NCBI GenBank assembly: GCA_023231475.1
Contig: JALJEE010002868.1
Location: 1-64,000, forward strand
Origin: Seison nebaliae
Lineage: Eukaryota
Direction: 5' to 3'
DNA: 64,000 nt
Part shown: positions 5,794 to 60,427 of the stretch, piece by piece
How positions within the stretch are numbered: position 1 is the stretch's first letter
How the letters are laid out: every line of letters begins with the position of its first letter
Program-made: the position numbers and the translations under genes
The notes under the pieces: generated by a model
Told to the model about the DNA's origin: nothing
The model's database searches: none
The model's input: the letters and a program-made list of their open reading frames with translations, nothing else

Positions 5794-5827
<34 letters not shown>

Positions 5828-8800: not shown

Positions 8801-8922
8801 GGCAACAACTACAGATGATCTTGAGAGAAATGAATGATTTACAAATAAATTTATTGTCTCTCACGGTCAATTGTCGAATATGGTACTTCTTCCATAAACT
8901 TCACGAATTGGCTGGAATATAA
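3148..8922 (+). CDS. Large single-ORF hypothetical protein (1924 aa), probably all-helical
   Basis: Uninterrupted 5.8 kb ORF in AT-rich DNA. F/I/L/E/K-rich amphipathic composition with a poly-P/poly-T linker near 5795-5830. No family recognised. Confidence 0.8.
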
Positions 8923-13330: not shown

Positions 13331-14983
13331 ATGACTGATGAATGTATTGGCACGTTTCGAACAGGAGGCCTTATCAATGGAACGAAGAGTTCGATATCTT
13401 TATCAATAAACAAGATGGATGAAATGATGAATGAGGAAATCGATCGATTGCGAAGTGAGTTAGAAGAAGCGGGAGAGAAGATATTTGAACGTGATAAACA
13501 GATTGAGGCGTTGATCAAGGTACAGGAGAAATTGGAGAAAGAGTATACCGAATTATCGGCCGCCGTTTTCGAAGAGGCCAATAAACAAATGAACTCGATG
13601 AAATTGAAAGAGATGTCAGCACATGAGGAGAAGAAGAATGCCGAAATGAAAGTTTTGATTGTTTTGAATAATTTATTAAAATTTGATAGGAATTTTTCAG
13701 ATCGAATGTATGACTACCGAATTACACCGTCTCAATCGTATAATTAAGGAAGAGACAATAAAGAAATCTGATTCGATGCCAAAAGTTTCCATTGAGTTCT
13801 CCGTCTCATCTCATCTCATCTCATTCCAATTGTCAGTTCTTCGGATCGTCTCAAATCTCTCCACAGGTCAGTTCTCACTCATTCATCATCATATCTATTT
13901 ACATTTTTACCATCTCATGTTTATTTTATTCAGTCCAATTTATCATCAGGTGCTCTATCGAACTCATCCTTCATTTCTTTCGTTCGTCGACATCGAGACA
14001 AACCGAAAAGTCATCGGAGAAATCATTCTAGTTTCATATCCTCCTTCACCGGATCCACTTTCTCCATTAACGATCTGTCAGATAAACAAATTTCGAATGT
14101 GGAAAGTTCATTTTTTATTAATTCAATTTCTCGTCTCTTAAATAATTTTTAGTTGAAGAAGATTTCGTCATCGAGACTAATCTCAAATGCATTTCTGATA
14201 TTAATTACAAGAAAAATTTAGAATGTTACAATGCGAAATTTCAAGTTAATTTTTTTTAATTTTTCTTCTTGCTCTTGTCGACGTTGCTTGGGTGTTTGGG
14301 ACGACGACAAAACAGAAAGAGTTTAAGAAATTTATTATAAAAACAATTTCTCCTTTTCTCTCGGGTATTTCGTTGTCAGTTGAAGGAAAGTTGTTTATAT
14401 TTCAAATTGTTTCTCGATTGGAAACGTAACACTAATAAAAAGCAAATAATCGGAAAAGATTTCCAGTCAAATCCATTCCTTCTCACTTTATATGATCTAA
14501 TCAAATCAGTTATTCCCATAGATGGCGATATAGTTTATTTTTATTAATTTATCATCTAATTCATCTCATGACTTTTTTTTTTGTTAAGTTCACTTCATTA
14601 TTCCACTCCATCATCACTCATACCATCGATATTCAACCATTAAGGTTTCCTCTCCATCTTAATTCATCACCATGTCTCCAACATGACCATTTTTGTCCAC
14701 TCCAGGAAAAATAAGAACAATGATAATAATTTTACTCATTCAATGAAATTAGACGAAAGTTGTAAACTAATTGAAATTAGTGAAGAAACGAGAAATAAAG
14801 TTTAGTTTGAAATTATTTTGCTATTAATCTCTTCTGAAGATCATCGCAATTTGTAATCTGATCGATTATCTGAAATACATCGCGACGGAAGTGGTGAAGT
14901 GTAATGAGATTGAAATGTACGCTCGAATAATACAACATCTCTCAATCTGCTTATTAAGTAAATTTGACTTTTTTTTCTACTAA
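13331..14983 (+). CDS. RAB3IP: Rab3A-interacting protein / Rabin8 (Sec2-domain Rab GEF), multi-exon; 5' end uncertain
   Basis: Sec2 motif 'LEKEYTELSAAVFEEANKQM'. Downstream exons match the family: 'SHRRNHS', 'LFLDWK..NPFL', 'HTIDIQPL', 'RNK|IIAICNLIDYLKYI...LSKFDFFFY*'. Inferred introns: 13652-13700, 14031-14081, 14106-14152, 14533-14588, 14645-14705, 14800-14839. Others are unresolved. Confidence 0.85.
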
Positions 14984-16700
14984 AATACTTTTCAGAGAGT
15001 TAAAACCGATTTTTTTTTCAATTTTACACACAATTTACACATTTTAACACAATCAACACATCCATCGCCCACTCGAATGTGATTTTAATTAATTTCCCGA
15101 TTTTTTCCCATTCCACATTGACCCGTATCTACTTAATAACGTATATATACATTGTGCATATTCTTCGTTCTTGTTCATTATTCACTGGACCTATAAAGTT
15201 TATTTAGTCGTCAAATTTCATTAAATAAAAATTTTCATATAAAGAAAAAAATCGATTATTTTATGGTTGTGACACAGTCCGCGTGATTGAGGACGTGGCT
15301 GGAGTTGGGAAGCATGATTTCAAGGTGAGTTTGGATTCTAATAAAACTTTCTTTCTAATAGTTCAACATTTGAGATGAGATTTTCTCCAGAGAGTTATGA
15401 CACGAAGAAAATATTTGACGAGATTGTTTTAGAATAATATGAATATCTTCGTCGCTGCCATGACGACGAGATGAAAAGAAGTCGGTCAAAAGATGATATT
15501 AACATAAATTATAGGAAAGGTATTACTCGAACTAATTTAAGAATGGACAATACTCGCGAAATGTGAGGAGATGGACTCAGAGTTGATGGGCGTTGGTTGA
15601 CTAGAATTGCCAATGTTATTGTTCGAATGTTGATGGTAAATGTTTATAGTTCTCATCTGACGGATGAATTTTGGACATTCAACGAATTCTAGTGAATTAC
15701 GAGAAAACATTCTTTCCAATTGTCATGGAAACTCATGTTTTTCTCACATACCATCATCTTCTTTGGAGTAGAATGAATTGCGAATAGATTGTTATTTGGT
15801 GTTCGAATATGTTGTCGGTTGCATAATAATTGTATTAAGGGCAGTATAAATTATTAAGTCCTGTTTCATTGATTATCGTCATCCTTCATTCATTCTCACT
15901 CTTATATCTTCTCGTTGAGAAACGGGAGACTTCTGTTTTCCTTTTCACTTCCAAGAAACATCTCCAGGAAATATCAAACTTTCATATTTCTCATGTCGGC
16001 TTTCCTTCCTATTTTGCTACGTCGCTCACTCTGCTTACTGTACGAATGGGGAACCGACTGATTGGGAGTCGAGCAAGCAGCTTATAGTAAGCCTCCTAAG
16101 CAATTCACTTCTTTCCTTGAGAAATATTCGTTTCTTCCTTTACGGAAGTCTTTTGCTTTACTAACAAAACAAAGTGGTAAATATGCAAATACAACTATTC
16201 CAATAATACTTTCACTTTGTTTAATTGAGGTCACATCATTGCCTGTTACGTAGAGTTTACTGTTCTACATGTACGTATTCCCCCCCGTACCTTACTTGCG
16301 CTCACATACATGTCGCGGGTGAACCTTACGTGAAAGAATCTCATCGAATACTTCTATAGGTACATCCACTAATTTTCTGAAGGAATTACTCACTAACTTT
16401 GGTTCAATTCTTCCGATTTACAATAACCATTTCTTCCTCACTTCTTCTTCTCCTTCTTCTTCTTATACCTATTAGAGAATAAAACGTTATTACCATTTCT
16501 TCTCTCTCTTTCTCTCTCTCTCTGTTTCGCACAAACCGATTCATATATGAGATTGAATATGAATTTCTTTCTATTCGTCTTCAAATAATCAGAGAATAGA
16601 AAACTTAATTCTCCCAGTAGGCGAGCTAGCTAACGTGGTGAGCCAAGGTGAAAATTTTTATTTTCAAATTGAACAAACCTACGTCAACTCTTCTCAGTCA

Positions 16701-18813: not shown

Positions 18814-19344
18814 ATGAAAATGCTCTTCAATTCGTTCGTCACATTACTCGTTTATTTGGTGATGAATGTGCAATCACGTCCCATCGTCACTCAGCCTGAT
18901 GTTCCTTATATCAAGAATTATAATGGAACCATCTCCATCTCATGGCATCGAATGATTGATGACTATATCTCCAAATTATTCTACGATAGGAAGTTGAATG
19001 TTACCGAGGATCTGATCAATAAACCGGAAGTTGACATTATTCACATCGAACCGGATCGACCTTATTTGGACAATTTCGAAAATCTCTCACAACCGGAAAT
19101 GACGATAATGAACGATCTAAATGATGTGATCCATTCGAATAACGAAGTACTTGATCGAGAATCGCATAAAGAAATCATTCCGATATTTGACGGGAAATTC
19201 AATGAAATGAAACAGTTCGATCAGTTTGATGAGGATACGCGCGAGAATTTGGAAGCGATTGAACCGGCGAAGAACAACGATCAACAAATGGATCGAGAAC
19301 AAAGAATATGTTGCAACTCCAACTACTGGCAACCGTTCGCTTAA
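18814..19344 (+). CDS. Secreted precursor-like protein (176 aa)
   Basis: Hydrophobic N-terminus 'MKMLFNSFVTLLVYLVMNVQS', an acidic Asp/Glu/Asn body, and a C-terminus 'REQR-ICCNSNYWQPFA'. Confidence 0.7.
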   Translation: MKMLFNSFVTLLVYLVMNVQSRPIVTQPDVPYIKNYNGTISISWHRMIDDYISKLFYDRKLNVTEDLINKPEVDIIHIEPDRPYLDNFENLSQPEMTIMNDLNDVIHSNNEVLDRESHKEIIPIFDGKFNEMKQFDQFDEDTRENLEAIEPAKNNDQQMDREQRICCNSNYWQPFA

Positions 19345-21427: not shown

Positions 21428-24400
21428 TCAGTAAATCGAAAGAATACCATCATCACCTTTCCTCGCCCTCACCATATCCTCCTCATACGTAGTGATGGAC
21501 CACTGCTCCGGATTGTTGATGACTGGCGACGATTGAGCAGACGACGATGTAGATGAGGAATAATTGGAGGCGGATGAAACACTTTGTGGTGAGTACAGAG
21601 AGTCATTCGACATAGTATGAAAGAGAGTGGAGGCTGTCACTGTCGTTGATGATTGTGAGAAATATGATGATGATGTTGATAATGTTGATGATGATGATGA
21701 TGAGGAAATATTATTTACAAATATCTTCTTTGGTGAACTACATCGGAAATGGGAATATTGAGACTTTGAGAAATTATCAAGATCTTCATTATTAATACGA
21801 TCCAATTTCCTTGCTGTCGTCGTCGGTGTTGTTGTTGTGGTTGGATCTTCTTTAATGAGCGGTATTCTAACAGAAAGTAACGGTAGAATGGTGAAGGATG
21901 TTGTTGTTGTTGTTTTCCTATTTGTTCCAATGTTTTCCGTTGATGACGTTTTGGAAGGCGATGATGTTGTTGGAGGTGTTGATGGTGCAATCGATATAAA
22001 TAATGGTTGTGCCCTTTCCTCATATTGATTGGATTGACTTTCCGTTTTATTGTCTCGAGTGGTGGTGGTGGTGGTGTGATCATGAGACGACTCGTCGATT
22101 CTCAAATCGGAGAGAGGAGTACGACGTTCTAATTCATCAATCGGTTCGATGTGTTCTGTAGACGAATATTGACTACGTGCTAGACAAATATCACCAACAC
22201 GAAGTTTGATGCATTTCATTCCATATCGACGTTCCGTCAACGACGGACAAATAGAACACCATTGTTGTGATATCGTATTAAACAACGGTTCTGCTTCCGT
22301 CAAAAAGAGGAAGATCTGTTAGGAAAAGAAAAATAATTGAACTTCATCACAAGAAAGAAATAACTGTTCGATTTGATGTCGTTCCATCATTAACGGACGA
22401 TGAAGGATTTTCTATTGACGTTGACGGACAAATGTTCACATCGATATGAGTCGTTCTTGTCGTGATGGTGGTTGATGTGAGTGGGAGACTAATTGAATCG
22501 GTCATCGAAGTCGTCGAACAAGAAAAGAAAGTTGACGTGGATGTTGTGGTGGTGGAGGAGATGGTGGATGTGGCAGAAAGAAATGATTGAGGAAGTACAT
22601 CCAATTTGAGTTTAACTTGTGATTTGGATCTTCTCAATAATTCGTCGTCTTCACTGGAATCATCTTTCCGGATTAGACAACTCCCACCATTCCCATCACT
22701 CCCACCATAATAATAATCATCTTCGGTCTGTAATGAATCAGAAGATTGTGATGGTGATTCGTCATTCCTCTTCAACGACATAATGGGTGATGGAACTGGA
22801 TCATTCTTGTCCAATTCCATATCAGACAACGAGAGAGAAGAGGAAGATGATGAATCTTTTATAAAAAATTGTTTCTTCAATGTTCTCGTGGGCTGACAAT
22901 GTTGAGACAATTGAGATTCTGCTATCGATTGTTTCGAAGTAGTTGAAGGAGTGGATGTGCCACTGAATTTCACATTTTCTTTTGATGACAACCACAAATG
23001 TTTGTGGTCAATTCGTTTGTGAATGTCGTCTGTTGTACCTTTTCCTAATGACTCACGATTCGTTGTGGAATATAAGAAGGATGATGGCGAGTCGGTCGTT
23101 GATGGTAATTGTGTTGATTTTTGATTAGACAACAAATTTTTCTTTTTCATTTTCCGAAATAGTTTCGAAGAGATTCGTCGTTTTTTCCGATATTTAAATG
23201 ATTTCCTCTTCAATTTCCTCTTATTCTTCGTTATAATCTCCAGAATGCGACAAGCATGTAAACGGATCTTCTTCAATTTCCTCCTCTCGTCTGTTGTCCT
23301 TAAAATAATTTGCTCTATAGTCGGTGTGAGAGTGGCGGTGGTTGGTGTTCGTGGAATGCCACTGAGCGATTGAGACATGGCCAAAGATGGTGAGCCTACG
23401 ATTGTGGTGGATGTGGTTGTATGAACGGTAGTGGAAGAAGGAGGAGTGACAGTGAGTGGAGATTTATTAAAATATTCAGCAGATGAAATGAAATCATCAC
23501 GATGTAATTCCATTATCGATTTTCTGACATTATCCTGAAGTTGAATAATATTATCGGAATTGAAAACGCGAAACGGATCGATTGGGAAACATTTGGATGA
23601 CGATCGTTTCGCTGAGGATTGTGTCGTTGGTGATTTCTTTTCTGATTTCTCCCATTTCCGTTGACGATTCTCCTTGTTCGATCGATCACTTCTCAATCTC
23701 TCGTCGTCATTACTCTCCATCATTCGTTCATCGGTTGACACTGGAGATATATTTTCAAAGTTCGTTCCACATGTCAATTCAGAAGTCTCTTCTGGGTTCT
23801 CTTGTCGTTGTTGTTGTTCGAGTAAATATCGATATAAAGAACTCAACAATTCTTTATCGGTCGATGATGTAGTAGTAGTGATGGCAGTTTGACTGGTAGT
23901 TGTGACATTTGTGACGATTGAATGAGAGAGATCTGATGAGAAAGTGGAATTCGACTGGTTCTCACGTTCAGTTGAGAGATTACTTCCATGGAAATTCTGC
24001 AAGAGGAACGTGAGAGCATCGGACAAGCGTTTGGACAGATATGAATATTCAGCTGTTTGAGAACTAGTCTCGGTGTGTGTACGAGTGCGACTGGATTGTG
24101 AAATTGTGCTAGATCTGCCTATTTCCTCCAATTGATGAGATTCATCTTTTTCTAATGACATGTCGCTGGTGCTCGTCCAATGATGGATAGATGATGTGGA
24201 TCGATGCTGTTCTATTTGAGGGAGTTGTGACAAATTATATGAATGAGATTGACAATATTGAAGTGGATTAGATGGGTGGGATTGATATGATGACGATGAT
24301 GATAATTCGACTTGTTGCTTCTCCTCCTCCTCCTTACTTCGACTACTCCTCAATTGACTTAACGTTCTCAACAATTCATTCGAGATCGATTCATCCAATA

Positions 24401-25363
24401 AATTGAGTTCGATAGAATCTGATGGTTGTTCGTCGGTCGACTGTTCACGTTGAGGAGAATAATGTGATTTTGGTTGGGACACACCTCTTCGTTTCGTTAT
24501 GAGACCCTCGATGAATTTCTGTCGCTGTTCCAACATTTTTGATTGGCGAATCCCTGAGAAGGAAGCCGTCGTACTAGTTGAAAGATATGAGTGTAATATG
24601 GAATCAGATAAATCTGGTCGTTTCTCTGATGATTTCGATACATGTTTATAGGACTGCTCTAATCTTAATGAAGTGGGAGATTGGTGTTGTTGTTGTTGTT
24701 GATGATGATGATGATGATGATGTTGTTGTTGTTGTTGTTGACGAATAGGATACTGTTGCTGCAATTGCTGTCTGAGGGAAGCATGAGGTAAATGACGAGA
24801 CGATGAATCATATCGAACAGATTCACTCGATGGATTGAAATCGGATTGAAGGAGTTCGGTTGTTAAATCGATTGGATTTTGATGTTGGAGAGAAGTTTGT
24901 ACATAAATTGACGACAAAACGTTGGAGAGATGAGATGGTATCATGCTCTTGGATGTGGTGATGGTGGGGAAGAAGGATGAAGTTGTGATGATTCGAGTGA
25001 TAGAACGATGATGGTCAAAAGATGATTGACGTGATGATTGTTCTCTCAATTGTTCGTGTCTCTGCGTGTCATACGACAAGATAGAAGGCGATGTTGCAGT
25101 TCTATTGATAGCAGAAGATATCGGTGATAACTGAGAAGATGATGACGATAAAGAAAACGGTCTAACAGATCTATCCTGACCATAACCCTGATGATATGCT
25201 GTTGAATATAAACATGGTGTAGTCGTTGAGAGAGATGGTATACTTTGATGTTTTAATTGTTCTTTTCGTTCTTGATGATAATGACGTTGTTGTTGTTGTT
25301 GTTGTTGATGGTGATAATGATGAAGAGGATTGTGTCCAATATGTTGTTCATATGAATATCTAA

Positions 25364-25402
<39 letters not shown>

Positions 25403-25910
25403 GGTACTGGTGCTGTTGCTGGTGGTGTTGTTGTGGAAAGAGTAGATTGGATGTAGTGAATGAAACGAAATTGCCTATTTGATGTTCACATCCCGGTGGA
25501 CGTTGTTGTTGTTGAGATGGATAATTTAATTGTTGATGTAACTGATGTTTAACATTAGTTGGTTGATATGTGGACGCGGGATGTTGTCCCGTTATATTGA
25601 AATAAGAAATATTAGGATTGATAACTGTTGTTGTTGTGGGTGGTGGTGGTGGTGGTGCTGCTGATGGTGTGGTAGTTATAGTAGAATGAGTAAGATTGAT
25701 GGATGTACCTGATAGGAGTGTTGTAATGATTCTTGAACATAAAGTGGGAACAGTGAATGATGGAGTAATAGTTGCACTAGTATTAGTTGTAGTAGAGATG
25801 GGATTATTAGAGCCACTTACTCGCAATGATGATGAGGATGATGATGATAACTTTTCCGACTTTGAACAACCGTGCTCATTGTCATATTCATTCTGTTTTC
25901 TTCCACTCAT
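21428..25910 (-). CDS. Large low-complexity (Ser/Thr/Gln/His) protein of about 1475 aa, probably nuclear; two exons, 5' end may extend
   Basis: The 1187 aa and 291 aa ORFs join in frame through a 49 nt GTT..CAG intron (22364-22316), giving 'SNRT|IFLFLTEAEP'. Contains poly-Q/H/S/T runs and an NLS-like 'KRKLKRKSFKYRKKRR'. Confidence 0.75.
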
Positions 25911-31084: not shown

Positions 31085-34000
31085 TTGAGATGGAGTGTGA
31101 GAAGAGAAAAAATTAAAAGGATAAGCCGCAGACAAAACAATTTTCGCGTACCTCACAATTTGAGAAAAATGCACGAAGATTCCGAACTGATTCTTCCCGA
31201 TTTGCCTCCAACCAACTCCGATTTCCAATTCGACGATGATGACAAGACGATAACGACGACGACGACGACGCGGAAATCGAATAATGGAATTCGTGCCATC
31301 CGTCAAGCTGATAAGGAGACGAAGGATAAACAGCGAGCAGAGCGTGAGCGTATCCGTCGTCTGGAACGTGAACCTGATTTAATGATGGAAACGGTTGACG
31401 GAGCGATTATGTTAGAGAAGGATATTTCTATTTCGAAATTGATTTCTGACAAATTGAAAAAACATCAAGTTGAAGGAGTGAAATTTATGTGGGAGAATTG
31501 TTTCGAATCAATCGACGGATTGAATAAGACGAGTGGAACAGGTTGTATTCTCGCTCATTGTATGGGAATGGGAAAGACTTTGCAAGTCATTTCATTAATT
31601 CACACTCTCGTCAAATATCAGGATCTTACTCACATTCATCATATTATTATTGCGGCACCATTGAACACATTATTGAATTGGAAAAAAGAAATCGAATATT
31701 GGACGAGAGATTGTTCACCTAAATTACTCGTTCATCATATGGTGGAAGCGAAGACGATGACTAAACGTAGTTCAATTCTCAATTATTTTTATGATGTTGG
31801 TGGAATTCTATTAATGGGTTATGAATTGATGAGGACGCTCATTGGTCATGTGGAAGATATTCAAGTGAGAAAGAAACCAGATCAATTATTAAAGAAACAA
31901 AAACGACCTCGAAAGAAAATCACAAATGCACAACGAGATCTCATTAAGAAGACACTATTAGATCCGGGAGCAGATCTCGTTATTTGTGACGAGGGTCACA
32001 TTCTCAAAAATGTCAATACATCCATTTCGAAAGCGATGAGTCTTATTAAAACTCTGAGACGGATCGTATTGACAGGAACGCCACTTCAGAATAATTTAGT
32101 GGAATATTATTGTATGGTCAATTTTATCAAGCCGAATATTTTAGGAAGTGTTGGATTATTTCGTAATCAATTTGTTAATCCGATTAGAAATGGAGAATTG
32201 AAAGATTCGTCAATTCAAGAAGTGAATTTGATGAAACGTCGAAGTTTCGTTCTTCATCAATTATTGGAAGGATTCGTTCAACGGAAAGATTATCGTGAAC
32301 TTGCTAAAATGTTACCGAGTAAACATGAATATGTAATTCTTTGTCGATTAACACGACGCCAATATGATTTGTATAGTCGATATTTGCGTATTGTGAAAGG
32401 AGTATCCAAATCGAAAGAAGTTCTCATTACTCGATTATTTAGTGATTATCAACAATTACTTCGTGTTTGGAGTCATCCATGGGCATTACCACTTCATCAA
32501 ATTCGAATATTTATTAATCAAAATGTCCCAAAGAAACAACAACGATTAGAGGAAGAATTTCGTGATTTCATCGATGACGATGATGTTGAAAATGATTTTA
32601 CTTCATCTAGCGAATCTGAAATTGATGGAAGTCGTCGAACCAAATACAGACGAATAAATTCCACATCATCTTCCGTTTCATCGACAATGTCATCATCGAA
32701 GAGAAATGTGAAAAAAGCGAAACAAAGAATCAGTTCAGATGATAGCGATATCAGAGAATTATCAGGTGAACCAGATAATGGAAATGATTCAGATTATATT
32801 GTCGATTCAGAAGACGAAATGGAATTCGATACGACTCATCTCTCTCTCATTATCAAACGAATGTTGAATGGACAATCGAATTTCACCGAACGCGAATTGG
32901 AGAAATTGAGAAAAACGGGCAAATTGAATTGGTATGCGGATTTATGTCCCACTTCTATCCAATATGATGAGACACAAGCTGGAAAGATTATGATGTTAAA
33001 ATCGATTTTATTCAAATGTGAAGAAAGAAATGAGAAAATTCTTATTTTCTCTCAATTTCTCACATCACTCGAAATGATTACTAATTTCCTCAAACATTGG
33101 GAAGAAGAAGATCGTTATCGTCCTGATGGTTCCAAATTTCTTTATCGTTATGAAAAAGATTACTTACGAATTGATGGTAGTACTACTGCACATGTTCGAC
33201 AGGAATATATTAGTGATTTCAATGATGATACAAATCGTCGTTTACGCATCTTTCTCTTATCGACGAGAGCGGGCGGTATCGGTGTCAATATGGTTGGTGC
33301 AAATCGTGTGATACTTTTCGATGCATCCTGGAATCCCTCACATGACGTTCAATCTATTTTTAGAACTTATCGATTCGGTCAAAAGAAATCCGTTTACATC
33401 TATCGATTAATTGCTGAAGGAACGATGGAAGAGAAGATTTATAATAAACAAATTACAAAAATTTCATTGGCTGATCGAGTAGTGGATGAGAAACAAGTCG
33501 AACGAAATTTCAGTCAAACTGAAATTACGAAATTATATGAATTCACTTCGAAAATCGTCGAAACGGAAAAAGAAGATGACATCGATGAATCATTAATGTT
33601 AGATGAAACATTGAAAGAGAAGAAACGATTAATAAGTTCATCGTCAGAATCTGATTCTTCAATCATTAATTTGGAAGATGATTATCCTCAAAAGAAAGTT
33701 GAGACAAAGGAGAAAGATATCGAAGATATCGATTATAATAATTTGATGAATGTGATTCGTTTGACGGATAAAGTTCCCAAATTGGCTCCAGCTAAAGAAG
33801 ATGAATTATTATCCGAAATTCTCGCTAATCCAATTCTCACTCGATATATTAAGAAATATTTCGAACATGATTCTCTTTTAGTTCATAATGCTCATGAGGA
33901 ATTAACGGAAGCAGAACGAGTACAAGCATGGGCAGATTATCGATCGAATAAGAATGATGCAACTGTAAAGACGACAATTCCTTCTACTACCGGATCAGTT

Positions 34001-34901
34001 CCCATTGCCCCCAAACCAAATCAACCGACAACATCTTATTTGGGAATGTCGAACAATTTAAATAATCTTTTCTCCGGTACAATTAATAAGTTGGTCACAA
34101 TAACATATTCCTTTTAGTCGATTTTCTTCTTTTAGTAATTATCTTCCAATTCCTGAAATCGATAGTAGGAATTTATTAGAAGCACTGAAAATGAGCGATA
34201 TAAAAATCCATGGTGTTGGCCCGAACAACGGTTAGTTCAACTCTTTAATTTTTTTTTCAATTTTTTTTTAAAATTTCTTTATTTCAATTTTATTTTCAAT
34301 TTTTTTATTTCAATTTTTTTTCAATTTTTTTATTTCAATTTTTTTTTTTAAATTTATTTTTTCAATTTTAGATGCTAAAATAATCGAACGAGCCAAATAC
34401 CTCAAGGATTATTATGTCAAATTATGTACAGATTATCCTGTGGTACGAACGCTCAATCAAAAAAGTATTTTCATGACAATTGTCGAGGTTTTCACATTTT
34501 TTTTCTCTCCATCTCTCATTTCCTTTTAGAACATCCGTTTATCATTGACTGATATCGCTAATATTATTTTGAGTCGACATATCGTGTCATCGTTGGCACC
34601 CGCTCTCAATCCATCATCAGATCGCACAAAAAATTTAATAGCGTCAACATTAAATTTGATGGAGGGAAAATCATCTCAATCATCTCAAAACACCACTACC
34701 ATAAACAATAACAACAACAACAACAATCATATGAACAAGAAGAATGATGAGGTGATCGTGTTATCAGATGATGACGATGAGGATGATATTTCGAAAATTA
34801 ATCCGAATAGAACTTTCAATTTTATAGCGAACGTCGACGATGATGACGATGATGTTCTTCCAATCACCAATTATAATGATGAGGAAATCATTTTGGATTA
34901 A
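31085..34901 (+). CDS. ATRX: ATRX/XNP SNF2-family chromatin remodeller; first in-frame ATG at 31169, 5' end uncertain
   Basis: Motifs: 'LKKHQVEGVKFMWENCFES..GTGCILAHCMGMGKTLQV', 'DPGADLVICDEGHILKN', 'LTGTPLQNNL', 'FDASWNPSHDVQSIFR', 'HDSLL..EELTEAERVQAW'. 3' introns: 34090-34135, 34231-34371, 34488-34529. Confidence 0.93.
34245..34370. repeat. Degenerate tandem repeat (TTCAATTTTTT..) inside an ATRX intron
   Basis: About 7 units of TCAAT followed by T-runs. They expand the intron to 141 nt. Confidence 0.8.
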
Positions 34902-35155: not shown

Positions 35156-38100
35156 ATGTATCGGATCTTTTATCTTCAATTCCTCATCTATTTCTTCACT
35201 TGTTATTTCTTCATTCGATTATTTTAAATAAATCCTTTAAAATCTTCTCTTCTTCCTTATGAAAAGATATCGATACATTTAATCACAATTCAAAATGTTT
35301 TCATTTAAATTCCATCATCTTCATCTTATCTCTTAATTCCAAAAAGACATTAAAGGATTCCAACGAGGTACTTCCTCATTCTTTCGTCAACGATATGGTC
35401 GACCGGATATCGTTTTCCGAAATAGTTCAATTTCATTACTCTCCTTCAATCTCTTCTTTCATTATTCATAAATTCAGTTTTTGGCAATCGTCAACCATAC
35501 AAGAAAATCATTCCAAGTATCATCTTCTTTCTTTTCCGCATTTTTATTTGAATTTAGAAGAAATGAAATTCATTGCTCGTCCTAAATCTAACGCCGATTT
35601 TGATGAGGAGAAAATTGGTGTCCGATTACAAGAGCAATTGGAGAAGAGGAAATTGTTATTTCAGAAGAAATTGAATGAATTAAATCGATTGAAGAAGCAA
35701 TTGCAAAAACGAGAACTTCGTTCAAACATTTCATTTCTCTTTTAATTTTCTATCGTTTCAGAAACCGGTTACAATGATCAGATCGAACGATATCGACGAG
35801 AATTCAAAACTAAATCTGATGGTTTCCTCTCACATTCCATTCTCTATTTCAATTCTCATCAGAATTAACACAACTCAAACATTTCTCCAATATGAAACGT
35901 GACGCAATGAAGAAATTAAGTTAATATCTTTCCAGAAAAACTTCATTTAATTTCTATTTTCTCAAAGAACAATCGATTAATAAAGAGAAAGAAACGGGAA
36001 AGAATTTAGGTGATAAATATACTTAAAACGAAATTTAACATTCTCTCTTCAACAGATAATCAGATTGTGACGCTGCAGAAAGATCTTGAAACGAAAAAAA
36101 AGAATTTGGATAAAGTCGATTATAGTTCGTCTATTTTTATTCAGTCTACTCTTCCATAGAGAATCCCATTATAGAATTCTACAACAAAAGTCGATTGATT
36201 TGTAATTTGAGTGATACGAGAACCAACTTAAGTTTTCCTTCAAATTTATCTCGAGAATGAAATTCGAAAAAATAACATTCAGTTAACGAAGTGGAGAATT
36301 TGAAGAAGAAGATGGAGTACGCACAGAACCAGTTGGCGGATCTCCACATCGAATTAATAAAGAAAACGAACGAAACAGGAAATCTGACAAAAATTCAAAA
36401 AGTTTTAGTAGAGAATCGTTTGGCAACTGACTACAAATATATAACAACACAAATTTTGTTGTTCGATCAAACTTTGCAATCATTGGAATTGAATTCGCCA
36501 AAAAGTTCATTTTCCTTAAAGTTCCAAGTCAATTCAACTCGTTATTTTCTCTAGAGATGATTGTTAATCCACTATTTCGAGAGTTTCTCGAAAATCTCTC
36601 ATTGTTGAAAGAAAGTAATTTTACGAAACAATTGAAACGAAAACGAGCCACCAATTCTCCTTTCGGCTTAGCCATTCCAAATAGTCCTGTGGTGAAATTC
36701 GAGACAGGTCTCTCGTCCGTTCAACGTTGTTTAACGAGTAAACGTATCCAAATGAATTCATTGAGATACGACATGATTAATCTGATAAATCGTTCTTCAA
36801 ACTCATCAATTCTTTTTGACTGAATAAAATTAATTTGTAGAAATTCAAGAAGAGAAATCAGTCACAGAGAAACGTGTCATCGATTGTAACGAGGCTCGTT
36901 AGAGATTTTTATTATAAACTGTCCAACCATTTTCTCCCAAATAGATAAAGAGTTGAATGTAACGAAGAATTTTATTCAAACTAAATCGAATTATCTTTCA
37001 AAATTGACAACGGGTTGAAAAATAATTTTTGCACAATTTCTTTTCACATTATTTTCACATTATTTTCACAATCCGCCCACAATACTTTTAGAAGTGAACT
37101 CATTGTTAGTACGGAAGACGAGTGTACAGAATGAGACAGATGTTTGCAGTTCGTCTTTTTTTATTGGCAAATCGAAAATTCTCTTATCCTTAGCACAAAA
37201 ATATCAAACTTTAATAAAGATGGTGAAAGATTCGTATAAGGATTTAAGTAAGAAGAAAGGTCAGTTGGAAATGTGGAAATGGAAACTGGCAGGAATCACA
37301 ACCAATTATGTCAATTTAAGTTGGGTAATTGAAGGAATACTTTTCTTGTGAATATTTGAGATAGATGCGGCCGATTTGAATAATAAGAGAATGATCGAAT
37401 TGAAGAAATCGGAATACGATTCAACTTTAGCAAGTTAGATAAGAAGAGAAGAAGAAAAAATGAATTTGGCTTGAATAGAATTAAAGGAAGCATTGGAATT
37501 TGTGAACGAGACATTCAATGACGGTTTCTCCAATGGAGAGAAGCAAATATTAACTCTTCAAAATAAAATAAAAAAATTGACGACGAGTTCGGAAATTTGA
37601 TATGTTTTAACAATTTTAATTTTCTCCATTTCCAAATGAAAGAAGTGGCAAGTGTGACGGATCCGGAATTGAATAAAATAAGTTTTGAATTTTTGTTACA
37701 TTGTCGAAAGTGAAACTGATTTGAACGAATAGTCGACGAATTCGAGAGTAGCAATGTCGATTATTTTTACCATCCTTCCGATATCAACCTATTGGATGGT
37801 TTCTCTCAATATTTTCTCTTTAATTCTCATCTCTTCTCTCTATCTCTATCTCTGTAGACACTACGTACAGTTTCTTCAACGATAAAAAGTCGGCAATCGA
37901 TACGGAAATTGTTGCCATGGCAACTACAATAGGAACTCTATCATCGCCTAAAGTACGGGAGGATTTCGAAAATCCCAAACCCACTGCTACTGATGAGATC
38001 GAACTCGTCAAATGTGGTTACCAAACTAAAACTACTTTGATCGGAACGGCAAGTAAGTTTGAATTAGGCTGGTTGGATACCACCTGTCCACTATCCGGTA

Positions 38101-38394
38101 AATTTTCGAGAGTTACTCGATCATTTATCGTCGATCCGGATGCGGATCCGCCTGTTACTCCACCAGTCATCACAGTGTTAATATTGAACTCTCTAATATT
38201 GAAGATTTGCTTTTGATTCTCTCATAGTCGCGACAATAACAAATGGGAATTAACTGTAGAGGAATTGACACTTTTAAGTTCGAACGAAGTTGAGACGATG
38301 GCAGATATCTTCACTTATAAATGTTAATTTTTTCTCGATTTCTGGACAAATATTTCCTCAATTTTTTTCAGGTGATTATGGGACATGTTCATAA
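35156..38394 (+). CDS. Orphan secreted coiled-coil protein (708 aa), 23 exons
   Basis: Manual splicing of 22 introns gives one open 2127 nt CDS. Introns: 35202-35266, 35297-35346, 35425-35477, 35517-35557, 35720-35761, 35822-35862, 35920-35967, 36010-36055, 36125-36174, 36232-36282, 36505-36554, 36792-36840, 36898-36944, 37014-37091, 37149-37193, 37320-37364, 37434-37478, 37587-37642, 37682-37732, 37799-37857, 38177-38227, 38323-38371. It starts 'MYRIFYLQFLIYFFTYIDT' and ends 'YKCDYGTCS*'. Confidence 0.7.
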
Positions 38395-41992: not shown

Positions 41993-43255
41993 ATGACTAA
42001 TCATACCACTACTACAAAGAAAATTTCATCTCCCCAAATCTCTTCGATTCTCACCGAAATTCATCAGAACAATTCGCCCAACAATCGACCCAAATCAAAA
42101 TCACTACGAAGAAGTCACAAAGAATCAGCCTCTTATAAACAGTACAGGAAAGTGGAGAGTCTCAAAGAGAATCCGAAGAAATTAACGAAAGACCATCAGG
42201 AACATCTTCATTCGAGTCAAAACAAGTCACCATTATTCTCGGCGAGTGAAACGAGTATATTGACATCCGAATCATCTCAATCATCTCAATCATCTTTTCA
42301 CTCATCTTCACATAATAAAATGATTACAACAACTAACGATCAATCGGATGACTTGATCGTCGATACAGTGAATGAGGGGAAGAAAGTGGAAGAATATCGA
42401 TATGCCGATCCATTAGAATTACACATTGACGAATCGAATTACTTCTCAGACGATTTCAATCCTGCACATATTATTAACTTGAAAACGAAACATATCAATT
42501 TCCATCGTCGTGTTCATGATCTGACGATAGAAGTTGAAGAGACAATTAGGAGAGAGAAATTATCGAAAAAGATGAAGAATGAAATGGAAACTGATTTTTC
42601 ATTCTCCAATCGACGTCCAACTCTTTGTTCGAATTGTAAATATTTTCTTCAAACTTATCGTGTCCGTTCGCCATCTGCTCAAAAGAAGAATTCGTTGGAA
42701 CAGCGAAATTGTTTCATTTGTGAAGCGCGTCGTCGTAAAGTGTTACCATATATCAATCCACCAATTCAGATCAATCGACTAACCAAATCAGATTTCTCGA
42801 AGAATGTTGATAAGAAATTAAATCGACCCATTTCTAGCATGACGACGCGACCACTCACTTCGCCCAACGTCCAAAGGAATTTGACATCCATTCAAATCAG
42901 TCGAACATCTCCACAACGTCATCAACATCGATCGACAATTCAAGAGAAATCGAAACAAATCATTCTACCTTATCGCTCCCTCAACGACAATAAGAACGCA
43001 TCAAATAAGACGGAAGTGAAGATAAAGAATAATCAAATCAATCTCAAGAAATATCCGGAAAGTATCCTCAAGAAAGAGAACAGTTCAATTTCGATGAAGA
43101 GTGAACACAAATCAGTGAACTTCTCGTTGAAACTTCCAAGATCACATCGTCATGAAATGAAATTAATTCCTGCACATAAACGTCGATTATATGAAAGACA
43201 AATTTTCCATATTCCCATCGTCAGTACCACAACGATGACACCACTCTATTTATGA
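41993..43255 (+). CDS. Hypothetical basic Ser/Lys-rich protein (at least 420 aa); probable upstream exons within about 40500-41990
   Basis: 1263 nt ORF with a CxxC..CxxC pair ('CSNC', 'CFIC'). Upstream ORF pieces at 40522 and 41076 are flanked by GTT..AG candidates but were not resolved. Confidence 0.6.
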   Translation: MTNHTTTTKKISSPQISSILTEIHQNNSPNNRPKSKSLRRSHKESASYKQYRKVESLKENPKKLTKDHQEHLHSSQNKSPLFSASETSILTSESSQSSQSSFHSSSHNKMITTTNDQSDDLIVDTVNEGKKVEEYRYADPLELHIDESNYFSDDFNPAHIINLKTKHINFHRRVHDLTIEVEETIRREKLSKKMKNEMETDFSFSNRRPTLCSNCKYFLQTYRVRSPSAQKKNSLEQRNCFICEARRRKVLPYINPPIQINRLTKSDFSKNVDKKLNRPISSMTTRPLTSPNVQRNLTSIQISRTSPQRHQHRSTIQEKSKQIILPYRSLNDNKNASNKTEVKIKNNQINLKKYPESILKKENSSISMKSEHKSVNFSLKLPRSHRHEMKLIPAHKRRLYERQIFHIPIVSTTTMTPLYL

Positions 43256-43302: not shown

Positions 43303-44513
43303 TTAAAAATATTTCTTACGAAAAATGTGTTTGTCCTCTTCACTCATGAACGACGCTGCTAACGCGTCTTCATTTGTCTTCTTTAAAACTTCTTCTGATA
43401 ATTTCATTCCGTTCCTTGATATATCGAAATTGTCGTTGATGTAATCGAGGAAGATTGCCGGATCATCCGAATTGATAGAGAAGGGCACATCATCATGTGC
43501 AAATCTCACACAAGGATGTTTCGTCCAATCGTCGTGAGGCATAATGGCTGATTGTAGATACCAGGAAGACCAGGGACAAGTTTCAAAATGAACTTTACTC
43601 GTTCTAGCTAAATCGTAAATTTTTCCATCGTCCAACACATGATAGCCATGACCGATACGTTCCGCGAACATATCTTCTATAGCTTGTTTGACGTGGAAGG
43701 CTGGTCCTGATTCACCTGCATGAACAGTACGATGAATTCCTAAATCCCGAGCTTTCTTGAATGCATCGATATGTCGTTGATCGATTGGATCGGTCACTGG
43801 TTCACCACCAGCTAAATCCATTCCAACGATCATATTTCTTCCCTGGAATTTTTCAATTAATTCAACAATTTCCATCGACTTCTCTGGTTCATGTTCCATA
43901 CAACATAGAATTAGTTTCACATCGATATCGGAACTTTTCCCTTTTTCAACACCTCGAATAGCTGCCTCGACTACTTGTTCGCCAGTGAAATTATTAGTGG
44001 TGAGAGTAAATGGAGCGAATCGTCCTTCCACATATCTCAGTCCTTTATTCTTCATATCTTTCGTGAATTCTTCGAATATCAATTCAATAGCAACTTCATC
44101 ACCGGAAAATAATGGTGTAATGACTTCGAACACTTTCAAGAAATCGAATAAGTGACCACGTTTTCTGTATATCGTTTCGTTGAAAGGTGGAGGTTCGACA
44201 CCCTTCAATTTCGCCAACTTCTTCACCGTATCGTAACTTATGGCACCGTCAACATGAACGTGCAATTCGATTAATGGCTTCGTCATTTTCGTACCTTTCA
44301 ATTTCAAGACGGTGAATAATGTGGCGATACTGGCGGCTAGTGTCTAGAAAGAAGAAGGAATTATAGATGAGTGAAATATTGATTTAAATCGATGAAATCG
44401 AAATGGTAGGTAATCATTATAGCAATAGATCTAATTGAAGTGAGATGTAGAAAAGAAATGCTTACGACGAAAATGATAAGGGAAATCAATGTTATGCGAC
44501 GAGTTCGCTCCAT
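43303..44513 (-). CDS. ADA: Adenosine deaminase (ADA1 type) with an N-terminal hydrophobic segment
   Basis: Motifs: 'ELHVHVDG', 'YVEGRFAP', 'HRTVHAGE', 'AERIGHGY', 'HFETCPWSS', 'SINSDDP'. Exon 1 (44513-44466) joins in frame across a GTAAG..TAG intron at 44465-44344. Confidence 0.92.
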
Positions 44514-53879: not shown

Positions 53880-54992
53880 AATTTTAGTGTATTATTATAA
53901 GTAAAACGATGTTTAATAAACATAATATTGATCGTAAATAGTCAATTATTTGTCTAACAAATTGTGAGAAATTTTTTCGTTTATATTTGTCGGGAAAGAT
54001 CTGAAGTGAGAAAAAATTAGAACTATTTAATTTTGAATATTGAAGAATCAAATGGTATTCCGTTAACATTTTCTTTTTTTAGCTTAGATTGTTTTATTCA
54101 TCGAAACTGTGCCTTAAACAATCAAATTCATAAATCATAGAAAAAGTGGAGTTCATACTAAAAAGTATAATATTGACAGAAAAATTTAGCAGGACTGTTG
54201 AATTGTTCACAATCTACATATGTTGGATGAGGAATATATGATATATTAATATCGGAAACGAGGGAAAAATACCTCTTAACGATTAACAATGGAAAAGGAG
54301 GGATACCAATTAGACAGAATATAAACGCCCGAGTGAATCGACGTTCACATCCTACTAACAACTCACTGTAAGATGTCACACCATCGATTGTATGCTGAAT
54401 GGAATATGCATAGAATGCATAGACTGTAAGGAAAATGAGATAGATGCCTGAATTCTATAAAAATGCTGGATTTTCAATCTGAAGAATCGAAAAGAAAAAA
54501 ACCTCAGAGAAATTTGGATCTGATTTGGTCAATGGACAAGGAAGATTTCAGACGATTATCAATTCTATATCCGAGGAGAATGAAATAATTGTAGACTATT
54601 TCAGAAAGTTCCGAATAGCGAGGTAAAATGATTCGATTAGTTAGGGATTTAGACTTTCTGGTGTTACATTCAATTCCACATTGGCTCATTCTTCTCATTA
54701 CTAGATCATAAAATGTTTTCAGGTTTTTTGATGAGTTTGCGAGGATGACTATATCATCAGCATATGGAAGAACTGCAAGATAATTATAGTTTTCCAAGAA
54801 GAAAGAGAATCGGTTATTGCAAGGAATTATTACATCGTCAAGTATTTTCCCAAATATCCAAGAGGCGAGGATGGAACCTTGACGTACGGCTTTATTGATT
54901 ACATATTCGTTTCCAATGCGTTCATTAATTTTTATTCGACCGATGAAATTCTTCGACAGCCGTTCGTATAGTATATTAGAAAGACAATACAA
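53880..54992 (-). mobile_element. 5'-truncated LINE RT/3' fragment, same family as 1-2583
   Basis: Motifs 'VRQGSILASWIF' and 'LPYADDIVILA'. The downstream 'PPFPLLIVKRYFSLVSDIN' parallels 'LPLPILFSRRVFTLIDKIN' in the first copy. Frameshifted. Confidence 0.85.
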
Positions 54993-57900
54993 TATATTAT
55001 GTCAATGATTATTCGTCTAGTTCTTCTGCTAAAGCTGAAAGCAAGATATAGTCTAAAAACAATTTTTTGGTATTTTACGCCTATAAATTAATTTTTAGCA
55101 TATTTTTTTTTATACACTAATATAATATTTTTTACTCTTTAAGACGTTCCTCCTGGGTAAATTTCAAAAGAAACAAGGTAACTCATTAGTATAGTCGGGT
55201 AACTCATTAGTTATAAGAAGTGTTCAGAGCACAGAATGGATCTTTGGAAATTATAGTGAGAAAAAGAATGAATTATATATTAAATAGAAATAGAATGAAT
55301 TAGATTGTTCTGACGTTCGGAAGGAGGATAATTCAAGGTAAACACGAATAATTAATGTTAACCATTCAATATGTTACGTATTATTATTATTAATAACATC
55401 ATAAAAATATTAATTATCATCATTTGCTAATATAAAATTTTGAAAAGAAATTTTCCTCATTCACAATTATTTGTAATGATTAAGAAGGATTAATCACCAT
55501 TCACATTAAAGGGACGATGGTGATTTACGAATAATTCCAAATGATAAAAAGTGGAATAATTATCTTGAAAATTTTCAAATTGTTTTAAATAAAGTTTAGT
55601 TAGGAAAAAGAATTTAAAAGAATTCCTCATGTTAATTCACAAACGAAAGAGATGGAAGTTGTTTCCATTCAATTGATGATATTGGAAAGAAGTTCATTCC
55701 TCTTCTTTGACATTCTTTGGCAGAACATTCACCTTTCTAGATAGTTCATTACGAACTTTATATTTTAGTCGGCTCTCATATAAGAATGAATATAATAGTA
55801 ATAGAATAGAATAATAGAATCAGTGAATAAGTTTACATAAGACTTTTCTATCCTTTTCTCATGAATGAACTTCAAATTTGAACAAGTAAATTACAAATAT
55901 CATTAACAAATTACAGTAGTTTCGTCAATTGAACTTCGGTTCAACTTGAAGGGTTTCCATTGGTCACCAACAGTAGGAAATTTTCTCTATTTCAGAATGT
56001 ACAGTTGTTGACCGACCTCGAATGGTAGTCAATTGTTTACAAATAGTTTTTAGTAGTTTTTTTATTACTATAAGTCGAATCTGTGAAAGGAGTTGACCTT
56101 TAGTTTGCAGTCAACCCATATACGAAGAAAAGGAACGTAGTTAACTTTTTTTTTAAAGAACGCAGCTCATTTGTAAGCAAAAGGAATCAATTTAACCTTG
56201 ATTTCGAAAAAAAGAATTCAATCAACCCTTATTTTCCCAATTGGAAAGTATTCAACCCATTTTGTCTAAAATTAGAATGAAGTCAACACACCATTTTCAT
56301 GTAACTAAACGAAATTTTATTTTTTTAGAAATTAAATAATAATTCGTCTTATTATTTGTTCAAGGTTCAAGAATGCAATGAAAGAATTTTCAATTTTAAA
56401 TCTGCATATTTCTTTTAGTCACATGACATGTCAATTGTCGTTAATCTGTTCATATTACACTCTTCCCAAGTCTACCCGGTTGTTTAATGCAAGATCGAGT
56501 ACTTGGTTCCTGACAATCTGAAAAATCATATACAAAAATACCGTAACCTAATTTCCAACGACCATAATCATGACTCTTTATTTTTCATTTATCAATTAAC
56601 TACTCTATAGGGATTTACAGTTATAATAAAAAAATAAAATATAATAGTTCTTCTTATTAATTATGCATTCATTTTTCCATATATTGAAATATATGCTTTC
56701 CACGTTCACTCAATATTTTTTCATACTATTCGATACTATTCATTCATGGTATACTATTCCAAAGTTTATTTCAATTTAATAATTTTATAGTTATTTCCCA
56801 AATTGTTAAATTGTCGGAAAAATTTGTCGGATTTATGTTCCAACTTTGGGTGGAAGCACAAAAGTTTCTTGGGGAATTCATTTTTTTTTTCGAAATTTCT
56901 TTCTCTATCTAATACATATATTGTGATAGCTCGAATTAGTTGGAAGTGATTTCCATGGTGAATAGAAAGAAAACGAGAGCGAATAGTCTGGAAATTGGAG
57001 TAGGTCGTTAAACTTCAAAATCTCCTTTTTTGTCTCCATAGTAATGATTTGTTGAAATTGGGAAAAAATAGTGGGACCAATTCATAAAAATTGGGAAGTG
57101 GGAAAGGGGTTTTTCTCCGATAAAAACCGTATAAGAAAAGTGGAAGAACTTAATGAATAATGTGGATAGAATTAATGGGAAATATAATTTGAAAAATTTT
57201 TAATTAAAACAATATCATTTCCATCAAAACTTTACCGCTTTCTGACATTTTTTTTCGTCAGATAATGGAACGAAAAAAACCATTAAATAAACTCATCTTA
57301 AGAAAGACATTTAATTAGAAATATTACTTGAAAATATTCTGTCTCCTTCTCAATCATTATTTTGATCTTAACATTTTTGATTTGGAGTGAAATATTTTGA
57401 ATATGTTGAATTTGACGTTGGTATGTGAAGTTTTGTTGTAGGTGGATTATTAGTATCAATGGATCAACAGATTAATTTATTTTTTGGTTTTTCTTAAAAT
57501 GTTTACTAGCTTGCTTATCTGCCTACATATTTCACTCTGTTCGAAAATGAAAGGTGAGTGAATTGAAGAGAAAATTGAGACATAATCACAAACGAAGTTT
57601 GAGTTGACCTTCTTCTATATTCAAAATGAGAATTAATGTCGAGAACATTCTACATAATGACACTGGTGCCTTAACTTTTAGTGAGAGAGAATTGGAGAAT
57701 GAAGTTGTTGCACATTTGGTCTGAGGAGGGGAATGAAGAGACTTAACGAAATATTCAAATTGGATACCTTACTTTAATCTTACTTTAACTATGAGAAAGC
57801 GATCGGATTTTCCCCCATTATAATTTGGAAAGAAGAAGAAAAAAAACGGATCGTAAATGTATTATTTTGTACCTAGATAGATTGGTAAGTGGGAGTGGTG

Positions 57901-58711: not shown

Positions 58712-60427
58712 ATGTTACAATGTTTTGATTTTGAATCATATTATCATCGAGTAAATAAAACGATCGTAACGAATAAGAATGATTTACGTGCGATTAGGAA
58801 GAATTTGGAGAAAAATTATCATAATAGTGTTTGTTGGATCAAACCGAAAGAGTCGTCGTGTTTCGTTCGTTTCACGAAATTGTCGTGGCGTTTCGGTTGT
58901 TTTCAATCCACTGACGATTGTCGACGGAATGACACATATTGTTGTGGAGAGAAGTTGTGTAATTTGAATGATGAATTATTCCCAAATCTCTTCAGTGTCA
59001 ATGAGAGTGATCATCAACCGATATTTGGTGAGAACGAATGGAAATGGTTCGAATCGTCCACTTTCTTCCTCGCCACAACTCTCACCATCTTCATCATTCT
59101 CTTCATCGTTTCCTTGTACAAATATTGGCGATTATATTGGTCGTATAAGCAATTAAAGAAAACAGTTAATTTTCGTAGGAGTCGTCTGGTTTTTGCGAGT
59201 CGTGAACGAAAGACATCTTCCAGTCAATTGTCATTGAAATTCTCGTCACCGATATCGTGCAATTCGTCGATGTTCAAAAGTGATGGATCGACTAGTCCAT
59301 TGATTGGGAATGGTGGAAAGAAGAAGAATTTGATGAAAACCATTTTTGACAAATTAAAAAGTTTCAGTTTGATCAGGAGAGAATCACAAAAGAAAAGGAA
59401 CGAAGAACGAGAACTTCCTTTGATGACGTGCACTAAACCGTGCACTGGTTCAGACGAGACGGACATCGGTTCAGGTGGAGGTAAATTGTTGTTGAAGAAT
59501 CGAGATTTACGAAGTGAATTAAAATTGTTTAATCAAATCGGCTATGGTCGATATGGAGTGGTGGTTCGGGGACGATTACGAGACGAAGATGTGGCAGTAA
59601 AATTGTTTATGACGAAAGATGAAGAATCATGGAAACATGAAACAAATATTTATAATGAATGTAAAATTAATCATAATAATATTATTTCATATATTGCCTC
59701 AGATATGGTCGATACGCTCAATGGACCACAATATATCATCATTCTCGAATACCATCAATGTGGCGATTTAAGATCATATCTTAATGAGTTGTTAGCCAGT
59801 CATAAAACAGTCGACTATTCAACGGTACTCTCACTTCTTTATACGGCGTCATTAGGACTCAAATATCTTCATACAACGATTGATTCGATTTATGGGAAGA
59901 AAGCTCTCCTTCATGGCGATATTAATTTGTCAAATATTCTGGTGAAAGTGCCCGGTGTCGCTTGTCTCACTGATTTTGGCATGTCCATTTATTATAGTAG
60001 TGAGAAAAGTTATTTTAAGTCATTAATCGCTTCTACAACAATTGGTCGGGGTAGTTATCGATATATGGCACCGGAATTCCTTGACCGAAAATTCTCGTTC
60101 AAACATTATAAGAATTTGTTCGCGTCTGACGTTTATTCTTTCTCCCTAGTCATGTGGGCATTAGGTAGATGTTGTGAGAAAGATGTGGAATGTGTTGAAG
60201 ATCCATTCTCCTCATTCACCAATCCCACACAATCCACCATGTATGAAGTGGTGGTGTTGAAAGGTGAACGACCAGATTTCCTTGAACATGTCTGGAAAGG
60301 AGAGTTGAAACGACTCAAAGATCTAATCATCGACTCGTGGCATACTAACAGTGACGACCGATTAACTAGTCTAAGAATTTCTAAGAATTTATGTTGGTTG
60401 AAAGAACAATTGGAAGAACGATGTTGA
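58712..60427 (+). CDS. TGF-beta/BMP/activin type I receptor Ser/Thr kinase (divergent); signal-peptide exon not located
   Basis: Cys-rich ectodomain ending 'CCGEKLCN', transmembrane segment 'FFLATTLTIFIILFIVSLY', GS-like 'IGSGGGKLLL'. Kinase motifs: 'IGYGRYGVV..VAVKLF...ESWKHETNIY', 'YIASDM', 'RYMAPE', 'RLTSLRISKNL'. Confidence 0.92.
   Translation: MLQCFDFESYYHRVNKTIVTNKNDLRAIRKNLEKNYHNSVCWIKPKESSCFVRFTKLSWRFGCFQSTDDCRRNDTYCCGEKLCNLNDELFPNLFSVNESDHQPIFGENEWKWFESSTFFLATTLTIFIILFIVSLYKYWRLYWSYKQLKKTVNFRRSRLVFASRERKTSSSQLSLKFSSPISCNSSMFKSDGSTSPLIGNGGKKKNLMKTIFDKLKSFSLIRRESQKKRNEERELPLMTCTKPCTGSDETDIGSGGGKLLLKNRDLRSELKLFNQIGYGRYGVVVRGRLRDEDVAVKLFMTKDEESWKHETNIYNECKINHNNIISYIASDMVDTLNGPQYIIILEYHQCGDLRSYLNELLASHKTVDYSTVLSLLYTASLGLKYLHTTIDSIYGKKALLHGDINLSNILVKVPGVACLTDFGMSIYYSSEKSYFKSLIASTTIGRGSYRYMAPEFLDRKFSFKHYKNLFASDVYSFSLVMWALGRCCEKDVECVEDPFSSFTNPTQSTMYEVVVLKGERPDFLEHVWKGELKRLKDLIIDSWHTNSDDRLTSLRISKNLCWLKEQLEERC

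Follow-up and report, generated by a model that had tools for sequence, protein, structure and literature searches.

Why should a gene that is split by more than twenty introns interrupt its codons at the same position almost every time, and does such regularity mean that its small exons can be skipped at will, or does it record how the gene has grown? This question is raised by a locus on the forward strand of the 64-kb window, by which we mean the whole stretch of DNA analysed here from the small rotifer Seison nebaliae. Read in three frames, the locus (35156-38394, +) resolves into 23 exons separated by 22 introns, all of them GT-AG and 41-78 nt long, with its ATG at 35156 and its stop codon ending at 38394. 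The spliced translation of 708 amino acids is exactly that of KAI3379329.1, which NCBI lists under Seison nebaliae as the hypothetical protein SNEBB_003155. SNEBB_003155 is a real gene, annotated by NCBI and still undescribed. Two isoforms are on record, of 708 and 707 aa, which belong to one protein cluster and differ by a single residue that results from a tandem acceptor at exon 5. Exon 10 has an alternative in-frame acceptor at 36159 as well, which would add five residues (36160-36174) and is also phase 1; the corresponding 713-aa model was set aside, because the acceptor at 36174 reproduces the 708-aa form of NCBI. A sequence-only reading of this DNA had proposed a 708-aa frame that emerges from 23 spliced exons, most of them 30-110 nt, with all introns in phase 1 except for a phase-2 intron at 38177. 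The match to KAI3379329.1 bears out this model, the size range applies to 17 of the 23 exons, and 21 of the 22 introns are indeed in phase 1, the intron at 38177-38227 being the sole phase-2 one, so that 19 of the 21 internal exons are symmetric. The usual donor consensus is GTA or GTG; the donors here begin with GTT in 20 of the 22 introns, as do all 26 that were hand-annotated in neighbouring genes (13652-53362).

Table 1. Coding span and exons of SNEBB_003155, in window coordinates; heptad positions are given as a to g.
Feature	Position	Strand	Description
Whole coding span	35156..38394	+	Locus SNEBB_003155; isoforms of 708 and 707 aa
Exon 1	35156..35201	+	Residues 1-15; predicted signal peptide (hydrophobic core); phase-1 intron downstream
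Exon 2	35267..35296	+	30 nt; symmetric; likely cleavage site
Exon 3	35347..35424	+	78 nt; basic, aromatic-rich N-terminal segment
Exon 4	35478..35516	+	39 nt
Exon 5	35558..35719	+	162 nt; coil 1 begins; tandem acceptor giving 708 or 707 aa
Exon 6	35762..35821	+	60 nt; 20 codons; coil 1
Exon 7	35863..35919	+	57 nt; 19 codons; g to e
Exon 8	35968..36009	+	42 nt; 14 codons; e to e, heptad-neutral
Exon 9	36056..36124	+	69 nt; 23 codons; e to g
Exon 10	36175..36231	+	57 nt; 19 codons; g to e; alternative acceptor 36159
Exon 11	36283..36504	+	222 nt; coil 1 ends; first 42 codons align with exons 9+10
Exon 12	36555..36791	+	237 nt; non-coil linker with KRKR; coil 2 begins; conserved in diverged copy
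Exon 13	36841..36897	+	57 nt; 19 codons; g to e; Cys382 at a
Exon 14	36945..37013	+	69 nt; 23 codons; e to g; diverged copy spans both splice sites
Exon 15	37092..37148	+	57 nt; 19 codons; g to e; Cys427 at d
Exon 16	37194..37319	+	126 nt (69+57); 42 codons; heptad-neutral
Exon 17	37365..37433	+	69 nt; 23 codons; e to g; diverged copy spans both splice sites
Exon 18	37479..37586	+	108 nt; last four residues same as those of exon 14
Exon 19	37643..37681	+	39 nt; coil 2 ends
Exon 20	37733..37798	+	66 nt; acidic linker
Exon 21	37858..38176	+	319 nt; most of acidic C-terminal head; Cys616, Cys640; followed by phase-2 intron
Exon 22	38228..38322	+	95 nt; phase 2 to phase 1
Exon 23	38372..38394	+	Final residues; Cys702, Cys707; stop

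Is the phase bias a property of the region, of the way the gene was read, or of the gene itself? The 26 introns that were annotated by hand in seven neighbouring genes, on the basis of open frame and recognisable protein and with two uncertain-frame introns of the gene at 13331 omitted, are distributed over phases 0, 1 and 2 as 12, 8 and 6. Compared to these neighbours (8/26 in phase 1 versus 21/22) the excess is strong, with a Fisher p of 3.8e-6 and a binomial p of 3e-10. Furthermore, a Viterbi model that was trained on the neighbours only, contained no phase term, had start and stop fixed and was run at three intron penalties recovered 21 of the 22 introns exactly at the mildest penalty and 20 of the 22 at both stricter ones, the odd intron being the one for which it took acceptor 36159 rather than 36174, which leaves it in phase 1. 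An ab initio prediction over the whole window, the splice models of which included SNEBB_003155 itself, gave mixed phases in every other multi-intron gene. Since phase 1 is in the minority among the neighbours, and since a prediction that is blind to phase recovers the introns, the pattern is neither chance nor made by the reader. That phase-1 introns are over-represented close to signal-peptide cleavage sites, and within extracellular modules, is established (PMC8001218; see also PMC1626468). A narrow literature search, covering titles and the openings of abstracts, found no layout in which coiled-coil exons with phase-1 introns have been duplicated in a secreted protein.

Intron density is very uneven across the window, in which long intronless frames (3148-8922, 31169-34117, 41993-43255 and 58712-60427 on the + strand, and 50014-48872 on the - strand), among which Pfam identifies an SNF2 helicase and a protein kinase, adjoin genes with many introns of 40-60 nt. 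The next gene downstream of SNEBB_003155 (38775-39960, +) encodes a multi-EF-hand protein, which we take to be calbindin- or secretagogin-like, and has four introns in phases 1, 0, 0 and 0. An adenosine deaminase by Pfam (43303-44513, -) gains a hydrophobic N-terminal segment from a predicted short first exon and is possibly membrane-anchored or secreted, while an intronless frame at 18817-19344 (+) has a signal-peptide-like start and no Pfam match. The window also holds two broken retroelement remnants with RVT_1 reverse transcriptase (194-2569, + and 54158-55001, -), and a large predicted protein of ~1400 aa with low-complexity runs of Ser, Thr, Gln and His (21428-25910, -).

The part of the protein in which the introns can be held against a structural unit is the rod. 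Two coils, at residues ~82-290 and ~345-545, each show the 3.5-residue periodicity of a heptad, in line with the long coiled-coil body that had been read from the sequence earlier. The exon sizes of this rod recur: 57 nt four times, 69 nt three times and 126 nt, the sum of the two, once. The 19-codon exons run from heptad position g to e and alternate with 23-codon exons that run from e to g, such that one pair spans precisely six heptads, or 42 residues. With the register set from hydrophobicity alone, and with heptad windows and a register break between the coils that were chosen post hoc, all 11 introns within the two core windows fall at e or g, as do 13 of the 15 introns along the entire rod (P ~1e-4 once the selection of two positions is corrected for). 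Exons that end at e have a terminal Leu pattern in common, which for exons 14 and 18 extends to identity of the last four residues. The 23-codon units resemble one another beyond what a heptad-keeping shuffle produces (p=0.02); for the 19-codon units and for coil 1 versus coil 2 the corresponding values are p=0.16 and p=0.05, and at a lag of 42 residues the signal in coil 1 is no stronger than at other multiples of seven, and is absent from coil 2. Because 19- and 23-codon exons recur and their introns sit at e or g, the run of same-phase introns was most likely left behind when a phase-1 exon pair of 19+23 codons was repeatedly duplicated in tandem. Exon duplication had been the second of two options offered by the sequence-only reading, and it is this option that the recurring exons uphold, albeit with a likeness between units so faint that, while expected of old duplications, it is also the weak point of the argument. 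A duplication within the rod does not account for the phase-1 introns beyond its ends, of which four are N-terminal and three C-terminal.

What kind of protein, then, is built on this rod? The most hydrophobic stretch of 11 residues in the 708-aa protein lies at positions 4-14; its core is short and includes one Gln, and intron 1 interrupts codon 16 directly past this core, close to the probable cleavage site. The description of exon 1 as signal-peptide-like agrees with the hydrophobicity peak, by which measure the signal peptide is a predicted one. Residues 20-80 carry a net charge of +10 and consist for 18% of F, Y and W, and the linker between the coils contains a KRKR stretch (residues 315-318; 36635-36646) that is a possible candidate for a convertase site. 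Residues 546-708 are acidic and hold Cys616, Cys640, Cys702 and Cys707, matching the Cys-containing C-terminal region noted earlier: four cysteines in the last 93 residues, with four more located in the rod. N-glycosylation sequons are not enriched (9 versus a shuffle mean of 7.8). Two single-sequence AlphaFold models, made without an alignment, show long helices at low confidence (mean pLDDT 41.7 and 32.4). Judging from the N-terminus and the cysteines, the product is predicted to be extracellular; what we say of its oligomer state, the fold of its head and its function is what we infer.

Searches for relatives returned little beyond the protein itself. The whole protein gave one match among 7991 scored, exon 21 gave one among 259 longer candidates at 100% identity, and each of these is the query itself; none of 2323 shorter proteins matched. 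A phmmer search with exon 21 against 1.84 billion representatives returned itself and two repetitive sequences, the latter rejected as chance matches over short stretches only. Of 163 pattern matches in metagenome contigs none was confirmed, tblastn against plasmids and phages gave nothing better than E 0.8, the ESM Atlas nothing at 0.9 or above, PDB sequences none below E 0.37, and NCBIfam just SMC- and Rad50-type coiled-coil matches far under the cut-off. The paralog search covered the protein databases and the 64-kb window. As had been claimed, SNEBB_003155 behaves as an orphan within these databases, and going by these comparisons it is apparently single-copy. For the head, Foldseek with a low-confidence model (pLDDT 32) as query gave no match at E up to 0.001, and an internal repeat that was suspected by eye did not stand out (p=0.64). 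Two short collinear patches of the head do resemble bacterial surface Ig-like/HYR domains (PF16403, PF02494) at the right spacing. For this comparison 128 loci were gathered by a short motif, with 58 of 59 aligned members belonging to PF16403, and profiles from 103 dereplicated segments gave p=0.70 for the upstream part of the head, 0.015 for the downstream part with the motif excluded, and 0.12 for both. A semi-global profile scored the head at p=0.02 against shuffles and above 67 of 67 control pieces, while HHalign gave 7-13%, confined to the very motif by which the family was collected, and the Ig-like/HYR families of Pfam did not match. We regard this resemblance, which was picked by eye, as a weak lead.

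Evidence that the rod matters to the animal comes from a diverged second copy. In contigs of runs X1, X2 and X5, which behave as DNA, the locus is present with 0, 0 and 1 differences, and the same runs contain low-depth pieces that are 84-91% alike to it. Among the matches listed, these pieces cover exons 12, 14, 16, 17 and 19; all five start 2-6 bases ahead of an exon start, and two end three bases into the next intron. The listed differences are found at third codon positions in 33 of 39 cases (p=6e-11), and four of the exons have 31 silent versus 5 replacement codons. The resulting dN/dS is ~0.02, with a bootstrap upper bound of 0.05, over 91 of the 708 codons (exons 12, 14, 16 and 17), a sample without a control gene that an 80% likeness floor biases towards conserved exons, and that has no bearing on the conservation of the exons left uncovered, which form the majority and to which the large exons 5, 11 and 21 belong. 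These four rod exons are under purifying selection. Two distinct lineages have been reported within Seison nebaliae (PMC8351084), and a copy that stems from the second lineage would fit this report, though it may instead be a paralog. Conservation of this kind favours a structural role over an adhesive or host-facing one.

Could the same rod have acquired its introns one at a time, or could it be something other than a secreted protein? Introns gained singly at favoured sites, namely in phase 1 of charged e or g codons that follow a core residue, would account for the weak likeness between units, and the interrupted rod codons are mostly K, E, Q, D, N or H, residues favoured at e and g. However, phases are mixed in the neighbours, one of which (13331-15003) is itself a predicted coiled-coil gene, an exact recurrence of exons of 57, 69 and 126 nt would not be expected under independent gain, and by eye the exon ends share no common AG/G target; single gain strikes us as unlikely. 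About equally doubtful is the idea that the product is a filament protein of the cytoplasm, or one anchored in the membrane, such as an intermediate-filament-like component of the syncytial epidermis that has diverged far. An N-terminal segment that is basic and aromatic, a pair of coils separated by a linker, and a tail rich in beta structure resemble the layout of such proteins; the Filament model of Pfam is hit at E=0.82, and the lack of sequon enrichment points the same way. Yet this hit scores 9.7 bits against a cut-off of 40, no lamin tail is matched at E up to 10 (a range in which the filters of HMMER drop weak matches), the C-terminus is unlike any of the three lamin ends that PMC10125929 tabulates for Seison, and the hydrophobic N-terminus followed by a phase-1 intron also speaks against this reading.

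The remaining alternative is one that the sequence-only reading put forward as possible, and it fares worst: a gene akin to micro-exon genes (MEGs), in which symmetric exons are skipped combinatorially in order to vary a host-facing secreted protein. Skipping in frame is possible for 19 of the 21 internal exons, Seison nebaliae has a crustacean as its host (PMC8351084), and the ends of the protein, which lie outside the copy comparison, could be changing fast. MEGs are described as having exons of 6-81 bp, mostly 15 bp, introns of 0.1-5 kb and products of at most 189 aa (bioRxiv 10.1101/2023.06.21.545858). In SNEBB_003155, internal exons of at most 81 nt number 14 of 21 and make up 37% of the coding sequence, just one of 21 is 36 nt or shorter and the median exon is 66 nt; the introns are too short, at lengths like those of the neighbours, and a 708-aa product for which no paralog was found in databases or window is neither short nor part of an expanded family. 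Furthermore, dN/dS in the biased sample of four exons is far from the raised values reported for micro-exon genes (PMC4350168), and the sole recorded isoform pair differs by one residue. The heptad adds a further obstacle, as skipping a single rod exon keeps it in register in 2 of 15 cases, which is the rate expected by chance. The net shifts are 0 (two exons), +2 (five), +5 (four), +1 (two), +6 (one) and +3 (one), and according to PMC4786415 shifts of 2 and 6 turn helices into beta-layers in trimers, whereas shifts of 1 and 5 are demanding. We therefore consider combinatorial skipping very unlikely. A more restricted use of splicing can be imagined: because the pair amounts to six heptads, joint skipping of 19+23 codons would be heptad-neutral and could shorten an intact secreted fibre in steps of six heptads (~6 nm), while skipping 19 codons alone would bring about a helix-breaking +2 shift. 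Such a splice-tuned ruler, yielding graded attachment or eggshell fibres that possibly carry a bacterial-type Ig-like cap, is a long shot.

With moderate confidence, we read SNEBB_003155 as the gene for a coiled-coil rod in two parts that carries a small Cys-containing head. The product, by prediction a secreted protein, is likely a structural fibre held together by disulfides, and the phase-1 introns of its gene most likely arose by duplication of exon pairs. The N-terminal hydrophobic stretch would route the chain to the ER, after which chains would zip into a parallel coiled coil. Given a rise of 0.15 nm per residue, its two arms of ~200 residues would measure ~30 nm each, joined by the basic linker, where a convertase might cut. 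Cys382 and Cys427, both at core positions, could cross-link the chains, and the acidic head and basic N-terminus may mediate end-to-end or surface binding. At the gene level, the phase would have been set by the phase-1 intron that follows the signal sequence. Copying of 1-1 exons, to which the rod would have been tolerant mainly in heptad-keeping steps of 42 residues, would then have carried phase 1 along it. This mechanism is known in kind; new here are the recurrence of 19 and 23 codons and the placement of rod introns at e and g. The locus offers a clean, small example of a coiled-coil whose growth history is recorded in its introns, through two heptad positions and one phase. Moreover, it illustrates that symmetry of the reading frame alone is no evidence for useful skipping where the heptad acts as a second frame, and paired-exon skipping, if seen in transcripts, would raise its importance. 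As a conserved orphan that is predicted to be secreted, its product is a candidate for a role in structure or attachment in an animal whose group is held to be sister to the thorny-headed worms; on the glands of Seison, the literature search found nothing relevant among the papers listed.

How does this gene compare to systems that are better known? Stalk-and-head proteins include CD23, scavenger receptor A, collectins and olfactomedins, in some of which the repeats of the stalk lie on separate exons. SNEBB_003155 is like them in its predicted N-terminal targeting segment, its long coiled-coil stalk and its small Cys-containing C-terminal head, as an analogy of layout; the heads of these proteins gave no sequence match in Pfam or PDB sequences. 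With schistosome MEGs it has in common a predicted signal peptide, many symmetric exons, lineage restriction and a host-associated animal, and it differs from them by its larger exons, very short introns, far longer product, single copy found, low dN/dS in the tested exons and a rigid heptad that resists skipping. A further parallel is with the extracellular metazoan proteins built from class 1-1 exons. As in those, a phase-1 intron sits by the predicted cleavage site, nearly all internal exons (19/21) are of the 1-1 class, and exon borders match repeated units of the protein, here at e and g in units of 19 and 23 codons. No segment of SNEBB_003155 was found in any other protein by protein and Pfam searches, as would be looked for in a shuffled module. 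The mobile modules of class 1-1 are mainly of the beta class (PMC8001218), whereas the units of SNEBB_003155 are alpha-helical half-repeats of a coiled coil, rather than folded mobile domains.
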